A stretch of 52,993 bases of DNA, from UHGV virus genome UHGV-1368966, one strand, 5' to 3'. The notes beneath the pieces are model-generated. The model was not told where the DNA came from. It worked only from the letters and a program-made list of their open reading frames with translations, and made no database searches. Of this stretch, positions 32,665-38,167 are shown piece after piece. Position 1 is the stretch's first letter. Every line of letters starts with the position of its first letter. Source of the DNA: a virus. The translations under genes were made by a program, and so were the position numbers.

Positions 32665-33426
32665 TTAGTCGGTCAGCGTGTAGCCTTCCCTCATCCGCGC
32701 CGTTCGAGACGCGGGGTCAAGTTTTTCAAAATCGGCACGGCGCATATGTTTTGCGCTGGATTGCACCCGCCCGGGGGTTGGATTCGCACCTCCACCGCTG
32801 GCCTCACTGCCCTTGAGCAGAACGCCCTTGTACGGGGAAAATTCGACCATCTGACGCAACGCTTCATCAAACGTGGCAATCCCGCTTTCCCCGCACATCT
32901 CTGCGCCGTTTTCATCAAGCCCCATGACGCGGCCTTCCTTGCGGACAAAACGCTTAGAAAACAGATCAGCGGCAAGGGCAGGATCGACGAGGTTCTTGCG
33001 GGCGTATTCGCTGCGGGCAAAGGCGTTGCCGATAGCTTCCTTTTGGAGCTCAGCTTCGAGCGTGTCTCTTTGCTTGGCGATATCGGCGAGCTTGGCGTTA
33101 AGCGGGTCGGTAGCACCCTTTACCCGAGCCGTAATGCGCTCTTCGATTTCCTTGTCCTTATCCGGAGCGTTTTTCATCATCTCAAGGGCTTTGGTGGCCT
33201 CAGCGTGCCAAGCGTCAAGATCTTCGATATCGGCAAGTTTGGCGTATTTGGACTCCAAGGCCCGAAGCTTGTTCTTCCGGTCGACGCTTTCACGGGTCGT
33301 ATCCGTAAGGCTTTTGGACATGGCCAGATAGTCGACGCCCTTCTTTTCCCCGGCGTCATTGCCCCAAATGGGATTGCCGTTGTCATCGATAGCGATGTTG
33401 CCGCTTTCGTCTTTTTCCCAAGCCAT
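32665..33426 (-). CDS. Scaffolding protein.
   Basis: AAGGAG lies 7 nt before ATG 33426. Highly charged coiled-coil, located between the Mu-F-like and capsid genes. Confidence 0.5.
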   Translation of the reverse strand: MAWEKDESGNIAIDDNGNPIWGNDAGEKKGVDYLAMSKSLTDTTRESVDRKNKLRALESKYAKLADIEDLDAWHAEATKALEMMKNAPDKDKEIEERITARVKGATDPLNAKLADIAKQRDTLEAELQKEAIGNAFARSEYARKNLVDPALAADLFSKRFVRKEGRVMGLDENGAEMCGESGIATFDEALRQMVEFSPYKGVLLKGSEASGGGANPTPGRVQSSAKHMRRADFEKLDPASRTARMREGYTLTD

Positions 33427-33581
33427 CAGGCTACTCCTTTCCGCAACTGCGGATATTCTTGTTCGCATATGCAAGTATCTTATGCCTATGCGTGCATAGC
33501 TGGATCTGATTCAAGTTCAGTGCTATGATACTATGCAAATCACAAATTGATAGTACATGTTACATAGTTTCTGGAAACTTT

Positions 33582-33911
33582 ATGAACAGAAAATCCAAAA
33601 GAATCGTCATATGCGTTTTCATCATTGCATTTTCCCTGTGCTCGATTGCCGGGTACAGGATATACAAGGTCGTACACATCAAGCGTGACCCCAAGATGGT
33701 TCGGTTGTTCCTGCGCAATAATGGGCTTTCAGGAGTACCGAGAGGCTATCAAGTAGATCACATCATTCCGCTATGTGCAGGAGGTGACGACTCACCGGAC
33801 AACATGCAGCTATTGAGCGTGAAAGAGCACAAAAAAAAGACACGTGGCGATGTGCGCACGTGTCGGGATATGTGGGAAAGGAAGGTATGGAGGTGGTTGC
33901 AGGGTAAATAG
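33582..33911 (+). CDS. HNH endonuclease with an N-terminal hydrophobic segment.
   Basis: GYQVDHIIPLCAGGDDSPDNMQLL...EHKKKT is an HNH motif. N-terminal IVICVFIIAFSLCSIAG. Confidence 0.6.
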   Translation: MNRKSKRIVICVFIIAFSLCSIAGYRIYKVVHIKRDPKMVRLFLRNNGLSGVPRGYQVDHIIPLCAGGDDSPDNMQLLSVKEHKKKTRGDVRTCRDMWERKVWRWLQGK

Positions 33912-34184
33912 TTATTGACTTTTACCGCTTTTTATGGCGTTGTCTCCTCACGGTGCTTCAAAACACCTTCGCTGGCGGCAGCCAACCCCGAAACGTGGCC
34001 TTTTTTGTGCCCTGTCAAGACTTGTATCCTCTTGGCGATGGTATGTCCTACGGACATTGACTCCGGGTGTGGGCTAATACAATACCGACTTGTCGGGAAT
34101 ATGCCCGCTGTCCAGCGACAGTTTTGAGCACCCGGAGTTTTGCTATTTGGCTGCTCCAATCAAAGAACTCGCTGGAGGCTCACC

Positions 34185-34913
34185 ATGAGTCGCAATCAAT
34201 CCCCTTCCCTGTCCGATTCTTTCCTTTTCCAAGAACACCCTGTAAGAGCACAGCTTGACGGAGATCAACTTTGGTTCATTGCCAAGGATGTATGTGAAGC
34301 CCTTGGGATTCTGTGGACTGGAGCCACTATTAAGGGCTTCCCCGAACGCTGGCAAAGGATGTTACGGTTTAACACCCATCGACGTGGAAACCAATCATTC
34401 AAGTGTATTAACGAACCCGCCGTTTATAAGCTGGCGTTTCGTTCAAACAAGCCACGGGCCGAAGCGTTCACGAACTGGATCGCGTCGGAAGTAGTCCCGG
34501 CAATCCGCAAGACGGGCAAGTATGAAGTGCCCAATCCACGCCTCATCAAGAAGTCTGAACAGCTTCCCCTGCGTCCTGCCGCGTTCCCGGCACCGATAGA
34601 CGAAAAGCCCTTCTTGGACTTCATCGAAGAGATTCAGGCGGCGCACGAAGAGGTAGACCGCATCCTTTCGCGCCTGCATCACAGCGTGTTCACCTTAAGT
34701 TGGAAGGTAGCCGAAGCTCTCGAACAGCGGGCGGATATCCGGCTGTACCTTATCCCGGATATGCTGTCTGAGAACACCTTGCGCGGCTACCTGCACCAGA
34801 GCGTTTATCATGACGTCAGGAAGGCACTCACCGCGCCGGGACGACAGCTTGAGCAGTACAGCAATCCCGGATACTCGTTGCTCGGCATCGTCAGGCAGTT
34901 GAATGCTAGGTGA
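34185..34913 (+). CDS. Bro-N domain antirepressor-like protein, paralog of 21011..21982.
   Basis: GGAGG precedes ATG 34185. FIAKDVCEALG is Bro-N-like. The C-terminal module is shared with the other Bro gene. Confidence 0.6.
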   Translation: MSRNQSPSLSDSFLFQEHPVRAQLDGDQLWFIAKDVCEALGILWTGATIKGFPERWQRMLRFNTHRRGNQSFKCINEPAVYKLAFRSNKPRAEAFTNWIASEVVPAIRKTGKYEVPNPRLIKKSEQLPLRPAAFPAPIDEKPFLDFIEEIQAAHEEVDRILSRLHHSVFTLSWKVAEALEQRADIRLYLIPDMLSENTLRGYLHQSVYHDVRKALTAPGRQLEQYSNPGYSLLGIVRQLNAR

Positions 34914-35074
34914 CTTGACCGCAGCCCAATGAATGGCTATTGAAAAAGGAAGGGCGGCGAGTGCGACCAACACCCACCGCCCTTTGGGGCCAGTCCCCGG
35001 AGTTTCTAACGAATTGCTCCAGTTTTTAGCCCCGGCAGGGAGGTCAGTCCCTACCGGGGCAACTCGTTTTCAGC

Positions 35075-35158
35075 CTACCTTTTCAGATAGGGGGCAACGA
35101 GAACCACGATGACGCCCGCCAATACATTGGCGAGGACGTCCAGCAGGAACTGCTCCAT
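35075..35158 (-). CDS. 27-aa hydrophobic peptide, type I toxin-like or membrane peptide.
   Basis: MEQFLLDVLANVLAGVIVVLVAPYLKR. AAGGAGGT lies 8 nt before the ATG. Promoter TTGACA-17-TAGAAA sits upstream. Below the 60-aa cutoff of the ORF track. Confidence 0.4.
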   Translation of the reverse strand: MEQFLLDVLANVLAGVIVVLVAPYLKR

Positions 35159-35195
35159 AGGCGCAACCTCCTTTCGGAGACTGGCCCACGGCGGT

Positions 35196-35224
35196 TTTCT
35201 ATCCGTTCCTCATTTCTGTGTCAA
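35196..35224 (-). promoter_or_regulatory. Sigma70-like promoter for the 27-aa peptide gene.
   Basis: On the minus strand: TTGACA (35224..35219), a 17-nt spacer, then TAGAAA (35201..35196). Confidence 0.45.
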
Positions 35225-35303
35225 AGTTAAAGTAAAATGTCCTGATTCACGACAAAAAGGCACGGTGTCACCCGTGCCCGCGCCCCTGTATCAGAGAATT
35301 TTC

Positions 35304-35332
35304 TTGCATTCTTCAGCGCCCATACATATACT
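35304..35332 (+). promoter_or_regulatory. Sigma70-like promoter of an ORF-free plus-strand transcript.
   Basis: TTGCAT, a 17-nt spacer, then TATACT. Confidence 0.45.
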
Positions 35333-35507
35333 CAAATGCAGGGAAAGGGAGTGCACTAACATTCCTCTTCCCCGGCGGAGATGTTTTGATTAAACCATTC
35401 TTCTGCTGTTTCCCCATTTTTATCCCGGTTGCACTAACCCCGCTACCGGGATATTTTTGTCCTTCAAAACCTTCTCTCGCTGGCTTGAGGATTAGCTCAA
35501 CGAATTT

Positions 35508-35551
35508 GACCCCGACAGGCATACCCCGCCCGTCGGGGTCGCCTTTTTTTC
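35508..35551 (+). terminator. Plus-strand intrinsic terminator.
   Basis: gaccccgac...gtcggggtc followed by gccttttttt. The A-run sits on the other side, so it is plus-specific. Confidence 0.6.
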
Positions 35552-36661
35552 TTACTCTATCGCCTCACCTTCCCGCGTGAACCCAAGGTCTTTGAGCGTC
35601 CTGTATCGGCCAGTTCGCTTATCGGCTAGCTCATCCCACGAGATGGAACCATTCCGCAACAGCGCGGCCCTCGTCGGCCCCAATATCGCGTCTTGCTTGG
35701 CTGGCGGCAACGTCTTCCACCAGCCCCCGAAGAACTCCCTCGTCGTGCCCGCATTCAGAATCTTTCGCCCACCAGTACCGATACTTCCCGGCTCACGCTC
35801 AACCCACGGGCGTATGACGCGCTGCACTTCGTCATCGGGAACGCCCCAATCACGGGGATTGTTAGTGATCCACTGCTTGACGCATCGACAGCGAAAATGT
35901 CTGGGCATGGGCGGGGACGCTTCACCCATTTTGTAAAAATTGCCGTCTAAACTCGCGCACAAAAAACACGTCCTCGTATCGAGCGTTGCCGCCCAGCGCC
36001 ACCCGCGCAAAAGCTCCTTGTTCGCTTCCATGACCGCATCCATCGCGCCCACATTCGCGGCTTGGATATAGGAACGGGTCAGGGTGACGGCCTCGCGCTC
36101 AGTGATGGTAAAACCTTCATCCAGCGCGGACTGAATGACGCTTCTCACAGCCTCTCGCGTCCCCTTCCCCTCAAGCCCGGCCTTGCGTAGCGCATCAAGA
36201 ACGGATTGCTTCACCCCTGCGCTCATCGCGTTCTGTACCCGAGTCGTGAGCTTCATGCCCTCAAAGATGTCGGTATCCCTGAACCACGTCACAAGCTGTT
36301 CACGGGTAAAGCCCACGGTCTGCACAACCGAAGATGCCCCGTTGAGGCTCATCATGGCGTTGTACTCTGTGAGGCTCGACATAGCGGCAATGACGGCGGC
36401 CTCTGTGATGAACGAAGAGGTCGTCAGTGCAGCACCGCCCAACACCTCGGAAAGCCATTCATCAAGCTGTTCTATCCGGACTCTACGAAAATCCGTGAGG
36501 GAATCGGCGTTATCGAAAAGCTCACCGCGTATCTCTCGCTGTAACTTCTTCATGAGCTTCATGATTTCGGCTACTGTCTCGGCGTCGAAATCATCAAGCA
36601 TATCGCGCCACGCAAGAGCACGGGTCAGGAAATAGCGCTCGAACTCTTCGCGGGCAGTCAC
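35552..36661 (-). CDS. Head morphogenesis protein (Mu F / SPP1 gp7-like).
   Basis: Contains CFLCASLDGNFYKMGEASPPMPRHFRCRC. Located just after the portal gene. Confidence 0.6.
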   Translation of the reverse strand: MTAREEFERYFLTRALAWRDMLDDFDAETVAEIMKLMKKLQREIRGELFDNADSLTDFRRVRIEQLDEWLSEVLGGAALTTSSFITEAAVIAAMSSLTEYNAMMSLNGASSVVQTVGFTREQLVTWFRDTDIFEGMKLTTRVQNAMSAGVKQSVLDALRKAGLEGKGTREAVRSVIQSALDEGFTITEREAVTLTRSYIQAANVGAMDAVMEANKELLRGWRWAATLDTRTCFLCASLDGNFYKMGEASPPMPRHFRCRCVKQWITNNPRDWGVPDDEVQRVIRPWVEREPGSIGTGGRKILNAGTTREFFGGWWKTLPPAKQDAILGPTRAALLRNGSISWDELADKRTGRYRTLKDLGFTREGEAIE

Positions 36662-38167
36662 TTAAATTGCTCCACCGATCATGGAGGCAAGGCTTTTTGC
36701 GCCGCCGGGAGTCCCATTTACCATGACGCCACGAGCCAGCTTTTCAGCTTCTGCCTCTGTGTCAAAGTCATCTGGCAAAGTCCCTACACGCTTCAAAAGC
36801 TCATGATACGATTCAAGAGACAACGCCCCGGCGCGGTACATCTCAAGCAAGTACCCGTCAGCCATCGCCCGGGAGAAGTCAGTGTTCACCTTGACACTGG
36901 GGCCATCATCTTCACCCCACCACATGGCGACAAACTTGAGGCAGTTCTCAAGGAAATCTTGAAACTCAAGAGCCCACCCTTGCAAGGTGCTGTTGTTCTC
37001 GCTGGCGTCGCGCTCAGACTCCGTAGCCGTGATGTTGCCCGTCTTCGGCTGGAGAAGTTGAAGACCGTACATCGCCATATCGCTTTTGAGCCCATCAAGC
37101 TCGCCCTGCGATGCTGCCACGCTTGACGCATCTACGCCCACGGACTTGAGTTCAGAACTTGGGTCATTGCTGGCTAAGAGCTTGCCAGCGCCCACTGTCG
37201 GGGCCTCTTCCTTCCCCGGCTCATCGCTTATCATGCCAAGCATCCGCCCGAACCACACTGGCCTCCGGACATACTCCATGAGCTCATAGTGACCGGACGT
37301 CGCCGCCCAATGCCGCTTGTTGAGTTCGGCAAGGTCAGACAGCGCAGGTTCAGCTGTTGCCGGGCCTTTCTGTTCACCGGGCATGAAGATAGCCAGAGGG
37401 ACGACTGAGAGCGTTGTAGTGCCCTCATCCCCTTCAAGAACCGTGTAGTCCTGCTGTCCTTCCCTTTTCGTATATACAACCCATTTTCCCGGAGTGAGCA
37501 CGCGGATGCGGTCAACGCGCTCGCGTCCAAACTCCGTACCGTCGCTTTCGTATGTCGTCTCAAGGTAGCGGAACATGGTTACGACAGGCTTGCCGCCTAT
37601 TGTCTCAATCCAGCAATCGATGACGGATGCAGCCGGGACATGCACGAGATACGGGCTCCACCCGTTCATGGCGTCGGCATCAGCGGTCTTCGTGAGCCAT
37701 TCTCCGGTGCCCTCATCAAAGTACTTCAACACACCGCCTTCCATGCGAGTGCGGACGCGGGAATAGTCAGCAAGGGCAAAGGCCACACCGTCACGCAATC
37801 CAGCCTCAAACGCGGCAGCCGACCATGCGGTGAGGTTGTGTCCTGCGTGGTCGACGTCTTCTGACCATGCCTTGAACGCATCAGACGCATCAGCCCCGAG
37901 AACAACAGGCTTTTGGAACACCTGTCCCTTGAGATAGTACAGCGTCCGCTTGAACGTGTTCAGAAGCACGGTACGGGAAAGGCGTGCCTGATATTGCTTT
38001 TGGCTTTCTCCATCACCTTGCTCGATATAGCGTGTTCCCGCAGCAATCATTGCCGGGGTTCCACCCATCAAGTCTTGTGAAAGCTGCATTGCCTTACGCT
38101 GGACAAGAAATTCAGGCGATACGGTATCGACTGACACTTCCTTTGCGGTGTTCTGAGTTATAGCCAT
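36662..38167 (-). CDS. Portal protein.
   Basis: 501 aa, between the TerL and Mu-F-like genes. Confidence 0.6.
   Translation of the reverse strand: MAITQNTAKEVSVDTVSPEFLVQRKAMQLSQDLMGGTPAMIAAGTRYIEQGDGESQKQYQARLSRTVLLNTFKRTLYYLKGQVFQKPVVLGADASDAFKAWSEDVDHAGHNLTAWSAAAFEAGLRDGVAFALADYSRVRTRMEGGVLKYFDEGTGEWLTKTADADAMNGWSPYLVHVPAASVIDCWIETIGGKPVVTMFRYLETTYESDGTEFGRERVDRIRVLTPGKWVVYTKREGQQDYTVLEGDEGTTTLSVVPLAIFMPGEQKGPATAEPALSDLAELNKRHWAATSGHYELMEYVRRPVWFGRMLGMISDEPGKEEAPTVGAGKLLASNDPSSELKSVGVDASSVAASQGELDGLKSDMAMYGLQLLQPKTGNITATESERDASENNSTLQGWALEFQDFLENCLKFVAMWWGEDDGPSVKVNTDFSRAMADGYLLEMYRAGALSLESYHELLKRVGTLPDDFDTEAEAEKLARGVMVNGTPGGAKSLASMIGGAI

Follow-up and report, generated by a model that had tools for sequence, protein, structure and literature searches.

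The 52,993-nucleotide (nt) virus genome UHGV-1368966 (the window, which here means this whole stretch of DNA) carries at 35075-35224, on its minus strand, a gene for a hydrophobic peptide of 27 amino acids (aa), which a sequence-only reading had likened to a type I toxin module. The parts of this proposal that can be tested on sequence are supported, namely a coding open reading frame (ORF), a hairpin at the Shine-Dalgarno (SD) sequence, a structured mRNA and, in addition, a promoter for an antisense RNA. We consider it probable that these parts form an autonomous, two-gene module of the type I toxin-antitoxin (TA) kind, in which the mRNA of a single-helix membrane peptide is controlled by a convergent antisense RNA directed against its 3' side, through the switch proposed below. 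We are more confident than this of the two-gene architecture, and less so of the exact switch. The case is stronger than the initial argument, made from a promoter and an ORF, because an antisense partner and an RNA architecture have been found and are conserved.

Layout of the locus

The features of the locus are listed in Table 1. The order TTGACA, 17-nt spacer and TAGAAA is found on the minus strand as had been described, and the 27-aa gene is indeed present, its ATG at 35158 opening an ORF that encodes MEQFLLDVLANVLAGVIVVLVAPYLKR. The promoter had been called near-consensus, which was overstated, as its -10 hexamer has only four of the six consensus positions and no final T; for this reason, it is not among the output of a consensus promoter scan of the window. 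The motif TTGACA-N16-18-TANNNW occurs four times in the window for 1.5 occurrences expected. Taken on its own, this promoter motif is not beyond chance, and the argument rests instead on conservation. Nearly all members of the family described below have a -35-like hexamer at the homologous position, followed by a 17-nt spacer, and the -10 equivalents that come next are TAGAAA, TAGAGA, TACGGT, TATAAA and similar hexamers. Two distances needed correction. The leader, thought to be of about 30 nt, measures 22 nt from the -10 to the SD, and the 8 nt given between SD and ATG hold when counted from GGAGG and become 7 nt when counted from AAGGAGGT.

Table 1. Features of the peptide/antisense module and of neighbouring genes in the window.
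Feature	Position	Strand	Remarks
-35 TTGACA of the peptide mRNA promoter	35219..35224	-	Read directly from the sequence
-10 TAGAAA of the peptide mRNA promoter	35196..35201	-	4/6 match to TATAAT, no final T
Predicted peptide mRNA, ~248 nt	34942..35189	-	From putative start G 35189 (7 nt past the -10) to the terminator T-run
5' arm GUGGGCCAGUCUCC, including anti-SD (CUCC)	35176..35189	-	Pairs with the 3'-UTR element
SD-sequestering hairpin UCUCC-GAAA-GGAGG	35167..35180	-	SD GGAGG at 35171-35167
Shine-Dalgarno AAGGAGGT	35173-35166	-	Read from the sequence
27-aa hydrophobic peptide ORF MEQFLLDVLANVLAGVIVVLVAPYLKR	35075..35158	-	Stop TAG 35077-35075
Hairpin inside the ORF	35111..35140	-	RNAalifold consensus, alignment A1 columns 52-81
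Hairpin 1 (GCCCCGGUAGGG...CCCUGCCGGGGC), GC-rich	35029..35060		14 nt past the stop codon
Variable stem-loop (GGAG...CUCC)	34999..35020	-	Predicted as paired in the minimum free energy structure
3'-UTR (untranslated region) element GGGGACUGGCCCC	34986..34998	-	SD-like G-run and a stretch that matches the mRNA 5' end in reverse complement
Intrinsic terminator of the peptide mRNA	34940..34984	-	Stem 34984-34950, then CCTTTTTCAA; terminator scan
Antisense promoter TTGACC (34915-34920), 17 nt, TATTGA (34938-34943)	34915..34943	+	Directly past the Bro-N stop codon
Predicted antisense RNA, ~120 nt	34950..35070	+	Start deduced from the promoter; end from hairpin 1 and TTTT 35067-35070
Bro-N gene	34140-34913	+	Converges on the module
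HNH gene	33525-33911	+	Beyond the Bro-N gene; scaffold-like and capsid genes (minus strand) come next
Phage_Mu_F gene	35552-36661	-	Upstream of the module
Portal gene	36662-38167	-	Upstream of the module

A module conserved in Desulfovibrionaceae and their phages

Conservation extends over the whole unit. We identified 38 distinct copies, encoding 22 peptide variants of 24-31 aa, some of them in IMG/VR viral contigs and others in genomes of Bilophila, Desulfovibrio, Ca. Desulfovibrio gallistercoris, Mailhella and another Desulfovibrionaceae bacterium. A search of phages with the 27-aa peptide (tblastn) gave no match, and neither did a blastn search of E. coli genomes with positions 34900-35600. 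The first homologue came from a single 65-nt blastn match to the same query, in a human-faecal phage contig; it shares the SD hairpin, the downstream hairpins and the terminator with the window copy, and its ORF, of 28 aa, is related. Further copies were recovered by pattern scans of IMG/VR viral contigs and of genomes, the SD-hairpin motif being part of every search pattern. In the genome scan, 15 of the 21 loci (in Bipolaricaulota, Dehalococcoidia, Clostridia and others) were dropped as chance matches lacking the peptide.

The window holds one copy of the module (nhmmer match 35188-34938, E=1.7e-63). The conserved block, of about 248 nt, begins about 7 nt past the -10 and ends right after the terminator and a short flank. 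It is found in many insertion contexts, in tandem loci, and in both prophage and chromosomal settings, and is in this sense mobile. Tandem pairs are present in four genome loci (L018, L023, L024 and L033). The allele of the window (MEQFL) stands behind nine different upstream sequences and, conversely, other phages have different toxin alleles behind one shared upstream region. The latter is seen when L006 and L010 are compared with L040, L042, L044, L045 and L046, which have the same upstream hairpin and promoter region, with MEQFLLD... alleles in the former and MKRFLRD... alleles in the latter; this suggests that cassettes have been exchanged at one phage site.

The family is apparently not confined to prophages, copies being also found beside chromosomal genes. 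In L017 (~880-2130) and L033 (15-2603), module copies adjoin ribBA-like and flagellin-like ORFs, which were named by eye from their N-terminal sequences, without a family search.

The open reading frame evolves as a protein

In the closest subgroup of the family, 10 of the 13 variable sites of the ORF are synonymous, and the remaining three exchange similar residues (V/I, L/I and R/K). Across the whole family, differences are most numerous at third codon positions (3383, compared to 2137 at first and 2021 at second positions), and the ratio of non-synonymous to synonymous substitution rates is about 0.44. Neither the start codon nor the SD varies, nor does the distance of 8 nt (from GGAGG) between the two, and the reading frame stays open over 24-31 codons in the 22 variants, despite an amino-acid divergence of about 50%. 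Judged from these substitution patterns, the ORF is evolving as a protein. The extreme structure of the RNA, and the presence of two terminator-like hairpins between convergent transcription units, could alternatively have indicated that the ORF is untranslated and that the locus is a structured non-coding RNA or a terminator cluster lying between convergent genes. The protein-like substitutions (10/13 synonymous, with a third-position excess), the invariant ATG, SD and spacing and the frame kept open in 22 variants leave this explanation with hardly any credit.

The peptides follow the consensus M-x-x-F-L-[RL]-D-V-L-A-A-x-L-A-x-V-L-A-A-L-x-x-R. They are strongly hydrophobic, with a grand average of hydropathy of 1.8-3.3 for the core, and their C-terminal charge ranges from -1 to +3. 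The polar N-terminus and hydrophobic helix that had been described are thus borne out, and a basic residue behind the helix is usual among the variants.

A predicted convergent antisense RNA gene

Each of the 38 copies has, a short way past the terminator of the peptide mRNA, a promoter that reads from the other strand. It is the top-scoring -35/-10 pair downstream of the terminator in 34 of them, and in the other four it has a lower score and was found by eye. Its -35 is TTGACn or TTGCCA and its -10 is TATCTT, TATTGA or TATCAA, separated by a 17-nt spacer (18 nt in L037 only) whose sequence is not conserved. The RNA predicted to start from this promoter would match the peptide mRNA in antisense over its entire 3' UTR, running through the terminator stem, the 3' element, the variable stem-loop and hairpin 1, and ending about 4 nt short of the stop codon. 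Its own predicted fold has an energy of -57.2 kcal/mol (z=-4.1). Hairpin 1, read on the plus strand, is the candidate antisense terminator, a terminator-like site at 35047-35060 being followed by AACTCGTTTT; the plus-strand sequence past the hairpin is AACTCGTTTTC. A coding function of the antisense transcript was considered and rejected, the sole plus-strand ORF (34933-35112) beginning upstream of the predicted start site.

One copy of the family has kept the antisense gene and lost most of the toxin gene. In Bilophila sp. MGYG-HGUT-01277 (L024 3937-4084, minus strand), a complete 3' UTR and antisense promoter are present with only the last six toxin codons. This orphan directly follows an ORF resembling helix-turn-helix regulators of the XRE type (HTH/XRE-like), downstream of a tandem pair of intact modules. 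Such a toxin-less copy argues, from its sequence, for an antisense gene that is functional by itself.

Structure of the peptide mRNA

The predicted 248-nt mRNA has a minimum free energy of -134.6 kcal/mol (z=-9.0 compared to shuffled sequences). The SD-sequestering hairpin, which reads CCUCC-GAAA-GGAGG in the family, contains CCGAAAGGAGG, invariant in all members. The hairpin inside the ORF has changes on both sides at several pairs (e.g. GC:13, CG:10, AU:3, UA:1). Hairpin 1 has a 12-bp consensus stem, of which seven pairs are changed on both sides according to RNAalifold; counts of G-U compared to A-C mismatches, used to find the strand on which it acts, are nearly equal (11 vs 10). The variable stem-loop is swapped for stem-loops of other sequence in other members. 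In the terminator of the mRNA, the consensus stem has 11 bp and covaries, and it includes numerous G-U pairs, which are possible only on the mRNA strand; from this pattern, the stem appears clearly specific to that strand.

In the minimum free energy structure, the anti-SD is paired with the 3' element, as part of a long helix between the two ends of the mRNA. When a 17-nt 5' segment is searched for its best partner in the 3' UTR, the same element, directly ahead of the terminator, is retrieved in 37 of the 38 copies, at -21 to -38 kcal/mol, even as the sequences differ. The 5' arm and 3' element are for instance CCAGUCUCC and GGGGACUGG in the window, CACGUCCUCC and GGAGGACGUG in L039, GCGCGUU and AACGCGC in L050, and CAGGCAAGU and GCUUGCCUG in L037. 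RNAalifold, applied to a MAFFT alignment, recovered only 4 bp of this helix because of register shifts and bulges, and per-sequence duplex prediction, a permutation test and an anchored mini-alignment were therefore used. Cognate duplexes have a mean energy of -27.2 kcal/mol, compared to -21.2 kcal/mol for non-cognate ones, and none of 10000 permutations is as good. In the mini-alignment, anchored at the anti-SD end and ungapped, which is conservative, 74.9% of cells pair (67.2±1.7 in shuffles) and 54 cells are changed on both sides (29.5±4.4 in shuffles, 0/500). Such double changes are found at 10 of the 15 pairs, and all slide controls are lower, with a peak at offset 0.

A predicted switch at the Shine-Dalgarno sequence

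The cost of making the SD and AUG single-stranded was calculated by constrained partition-function folding for 37 distinct members. For the full-length mRNA, its mean is 6.4 kcal/mol; it becomes 13.4 kcal/mol if the 3' UTR is masked, as it would be by pairing with the antisense RNA, and is 13.6 kcal/mol in the nascent 5' part. Masking the 3' UTR raises the cost by more than 1 kcal/mol in 36 of the 37 members. The exception (L046 4696-4948, minus strand) is a member in which the SD-like 3' element has been replaced by unrelated sequence; its opening cost is flat (11.2 vs 11.4 kcal/mol), with no drop in the full-length mRNA. The effect is confined to the element, as masking only its 15 nt gives a mean of 13.1 kcal/mol and masking the rest of the 3' UTR a mean of 6.2 kcal/mol. 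For the copy of the window, masking the element lifts the cost from 5.2 to 17.0 kcal/mol. Folding thus predicts, in 36 of the 37 members, that binding at the 3' end would tighten the sequestration of the SD, the effect described for bsrG/SR4.

We propose the following mechanism. In the nascent mRNA, the CUCC-GAAA-GGAG hairpin would hold the SD closed. As soon as the 3' UTR has been transcribed, its G-rich, SD-like element GGGGACUGGCCCC would pair with the 5' end of the mRNA, including the anti-SD, and this capture would release the SD and allow the peptide to be translated. By occupying the 3' element, the antisense RNA would send the anti-SD back onto the SD and turn translation off, and the long duplex between mRNA and antisense RNA would probably also be cut by RNase III. 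If the module or its antisense RNA were lost, the peptide would be made and could damage the membrane. This scheme assumes transcription from both promoters.

The same two genes could also work with another logic, in which the helix between the two ends is a stabilising or inactivating lock of the hok or AapA1 kind, protecting the 5' end and keeping the full-length mRNA inert, and the antisense RNA acts mainly as a trigger of duplex cleavage and decay rather than by closing the SD again. The helix covaries, yet the sequence data are silent on its effect. Moreover, RNAalifold pairs the SD (AGGAG, 35168-35172) with an invariant UUCCU of codons 4-5 (35145-35149), so that the SD may remain closed, and the ~120 nt of complementarity offer RNase III an obvious substrate; long convergent overlaps have been taken as suggesting degradation in C. 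difficile (PMC5961336). Two observations point the other way. The 3' element halves the predicted SD opening cost in 36 of the 37 members and does not do so in the member that lacks it. In addition, the complementarity reaches into the anti-SD (GGAGG or GGGGG opposite CCUCC) in almost all members, which weighs against a lock because a mere end-to-end clamp would not need it. We therefore regard the lock as unlikely and keep the opening of the SD by the 3' element as our working model.

Genomic setting

The module lies, as had been reported, in a gap of about 0.6 kb, which measures 638 bp between the Phage_Mu_F gene (ending at 35552) and the Bro-N gene (ending at 34913). It belongs to an island (33525-35551) made of the HNH gene, an sRNA-Xcc1-like element, the Bro-N gene and the peptide/antisense module, which splits the minus-strand head operon between the Phage_Mu_F gene and a DUF6651 scaffold-like gene. 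The module is probably a moron in the head-gene cluster of a Desulfovibrionaceae prophage, of Bilophila or Desulfovibrio.

A search of positions 33400-36000 with Rfam models (cmscan, both strands, E up to 1) gave no match in the module, including no covariance-model match to the toxin and antitoxin RNA families (Sok, IstR, Sib, RatA, SR4-like and others). Its only match was sRNA-Xcc1 (RF02221) at 34061-34145, on the plus strand, within the leader of the Bro-N gene; it is full-length for the model and near the threshold (52.9 bits for a gathering score of 53, E=5e-8).

In the related viral contig L003 (3040-3080), the Mu_F stop codon is directly followed by a terminator (corresponding to window positions 35279-35258) and then by the module. 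Compared to L003, the window has about 270 additional bases (35280-35551), which contain the hairpin GACCCCGACGGGCGGGGTATGCCTGTCGGGGTC; a 97% identical hairpin adjoins the module in L010 (2552-2629). A 69-aa ORF in this extra stretch (35313-35522) has no Pfam match.

The location of the locus in the late region of a prophage, together with weak matches of three of 18 family peptides to a PHROG holin family (E ~0.03-0.05), raises the possibility that the peptide is an accessory of phage lysis or host killing, holin-like or Kil-like and expressed during the lytic cycle, the promoter on the opposite strand being incidental. To our knowledge, 27 aa is shorter than known holins. The module has its own promoter and terminator and does not adjoin lysis genes, tandem copies lie beside ribBA-like and flagellin-like chromosomal genes outside prophages, and the antisense promoter is kept in every copy with a fixed spacer. 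A lytic role is in our opinion very improbable.

Nature of the peptide and significance of the module

The window peptide has no Pfam family match. Among four variants compared to Pfam, the sole match was a far sub-threshold one to PAP2, obtained with another variant. PADLOC gave no match. Eighteen family peptides were also compared to the 18,950 models of NCBIfam. NF047374 (C. difficile type I toxin) is matched by seven of them, always over the N-terminal 22 profile positions (best E=1.1e-4); for the window peptide, the match covers profile positions 1-22 of 51 and scores 19.8 bits (E=7.8e-4), below the 60-bit cut-off. NF033608 (Fst family toxin) is matched by two of the 18 (best E=0.011), also below its cut-off, and phrog_738, a PHROG of uncharacterised function, by nine. 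Recurrent matches are limited to these three families, all sub-threshold for the two toxin families, and would indicate resemblance rather than membership. Three exact peptide sequences are present in a collection of 15 billion proteins, all without a name.

Several points weigh against our interpretation and should temper it. The matches to toxin families are far below the curated cut-offs (19.8 vs 60 bits for the window peptide), and hydrophobic helices match one another easily. The -10 hexamer of the window copy is weak for both promoters (TAGAAA and TATTGA). Past hairpin 1, the T tail is weak as well, with TTT in 18 and TTTT in 7 of 26 distinct tails, and the 3' end of the antisense RNA is therefore uncertain. 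The invariance of the SD hairpin is partly due to construction, because the search patterns required this motif. As to the helix between the two ends of the mRNA, the mini-alignment was anchored using the predicted duplex, and the relatedness of the sequences inflates the significance obtained from shuffles. The SD may, according to the predicted pairing with codons 4-5, stay partly closed even after capture of the anti-SD. Finally, the predicted direction of the switch comes solely from nearest-neighbour thermodynamics.

The peptide is a putative toxin, and the same locus could encode a non-toxic small membrane protein, such as a modulator of a host or phage membrane complex or a superinfection-exclusion factor, whose level would be tuned by the cis-antisense RNA. 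Among bacterial peptides of 20-50 aa with a single transmembrane helix, many act as regulators and not as toxins. The peptide is devoid of the Lys-rich tail of the C. difficile toxins, and the absence of any PADLOC match goes in the same direction. Nevertheless, translational repression in several layers, a dedicated antisense gene, tandem copies, allele exchange at one site, an orphan antisense copy and a spread over mobile elements and chromosomes make up a typical type I TA signature, and the only recurrent matches to named families are to type I toxins. A non-toxic function seems to us a minor prospect, less likely than the lock discussed above and likelier than a role in lysis.

We thus return to a toxin-antitoxin module as the preferred reading. 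With no match to the module in Rfam and none to the window peptide in Pfam, the sequence comparisons make it likely that this is a new, unannotated family of type I TA-like modules in Desulfovibrionaceae and their phages, with an antitoxin placed on the 3' side in the Gram-positive manner and a predicted activator in the 3' UTR. We found nothing relevant in the literature on type I TA systems, small RNAs or antisense RNAs of Desulfovibrio and Bilophila, a comparison outside which the lists of hydrophobic tandem-ORF candidates of Fozo et al. (2010) lie. Type I TA systems have been reported from a few phyla, of which a 2025 paper lists only Proteobacteria, Firmicutes and Tenericutes (PMC12390103). 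A bolder statement would be that the module represents an undescribed type I TA family, the first for Desulfovibrionaceae (Thermodesulfobacteriota) and their gut phages, working as a three-state RNA switch whose antitoxin hides a 3'-UTR activator and does not touch the ribosome binding site. We offer it tentatively, as the chances are somewhat against so complete a claim.

If the module works as proposed, the 3'-side antisense arrangement would extend to Gram-negative gut Desulfovibrionaceae (Bilophila, Desulfovibrio and Mailhella) and to their temperate phages, and a compact, portable RNA switch, made of an SD-mimicking activator in the 3' UTR and an antitoxin RNA that masks it, would join the known repertoire. 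In the bolder reading, this portable moron would serve to stabilise prophages or to abort superinfection in an abundant group of sulfate and sulfite reducers of the human gut. The module also offers a definite candidate for the maintenance of prophages or the exclusion of phages in bacteria that lend themselves poorly to genetic work, and a few compensatory mutations would suffice to test its predicted regulation.

Comparison with known systems

Four general traits of type I TA systems are found or predicted in the module: a short ORF (under ~60 aa) that codes for a hydrophobic, membrane-spanning peptide; a separate gene, with a promoter of its own, for a predicted antisense RNA complementary to the toxin mRNA; an occluded ribosome binding site, with a predicted opening cost of ~13.6 kcal/mol in the nascent 5' part; and multi-copy or tandem loci on mobile elements and chromosomes. 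The peptide had been likened to TisB, Fst, DinQ and Ibs, and is homologous to none of the four. In its gene organisation, the module resembles the Gram-positive families with a 3' overlap, such as bsrG/SR4, txpA/RatA and those of C. difficile, and not the E. coli ones that had been named.

In hok/sok and AapA1/IsoA1, the 5' end of the toxin mRNA pairs with its 3' end, and the SD is ruled by alternative structures that include metastable, co-transcriptional hairpins. The predicted mRNA of our module shares this fold-back, in the form of its covarying helix between the 5' and 3' ends. The predicted effect is the opposite, however. The fold-back of hok and AapA1 holds their mRNA in an inactive state, and it is the 5' region that their antisense RNAs bind; in our module, the helix is predicted to free the SD, and the antisense RNA to bind the 3' UTR. 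The peptide, with 27 aa compared to about 50 aa for Hok, has no Pfam match, the mRNA has no mok-like leader ORF, and the antisense promoter is on the 3' side, all of which set the module apart from hok/sok.

In the par system of pAD1 (RNAI-RNAII, with the Fst toxin), two RNAs converge around a terminator, the toxin is small with a single helix, and an upstream helix limits its translation. The convergent RNAs and the small single-helix peptide are shared with our module. In par, one bidirectional terminator serves both RNAs, which contact each other at direct repeats outside the overlap (PMC8594479); in our module, the antisense promoter is located past the mRNA terminator, and the two RNAs would interact over the overlap itself.

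The C. difficile toxins of NF047374 are closer. CD2517.1/RCd8 and CD0956.2/RCd10 are prophage loci with convergent, overlapping transcripts, a sequestered ribosome binding site and an N-terminal hydrophobic helix (PMC5961336), four features that are found or predicted in our module. These toxins are nevertheless of 50-53 aa with a Lys-rich tail (PMC5961336), whereas the peptides of our family have 24-31 aa, are devoid of such a tail, and come from another host phylum, so that they differ from NF047374 in both length and tail.

The closest parallel in regulation is with bsrG/SR4, from the SPbeta prophage of B. subtilis, and with txpA/RatA, bsrE/SR5 and yonT/SR6, which share with our module a small, hydrophobic toxin borne by a prophage and a convergent antitoxin RNA over the 3' part of the toxin mRNA. 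In the T1TAdb paper, this 3'-side arrangement is listed only for Gram-positive families, the antisense RNAs of Gram-negative families being on the 5' side or fully overlapped (PMC8594479). The bsrG/SR4 group differs from our family in having no sequence similarity to it and in its Firmicutes hosts. In most Gram-positive families of the 3'-side kind, the antisense RNA also overlaps the ORF (PMC8594479), whereas ours is predicted to stop about 4 nt short of the stop codon. The binding of SR4 at the 3' end of bsrG mRNA changes the structure around the SD and extends its sequestration; it inhibits translation and also promotes decay (PMC3834814). The same logic, by which binding at the 3' end closes the SD, is predicted for our module, with the difference that the lever would here be an explicit, SD-like 3' element capturing the anti-SD.

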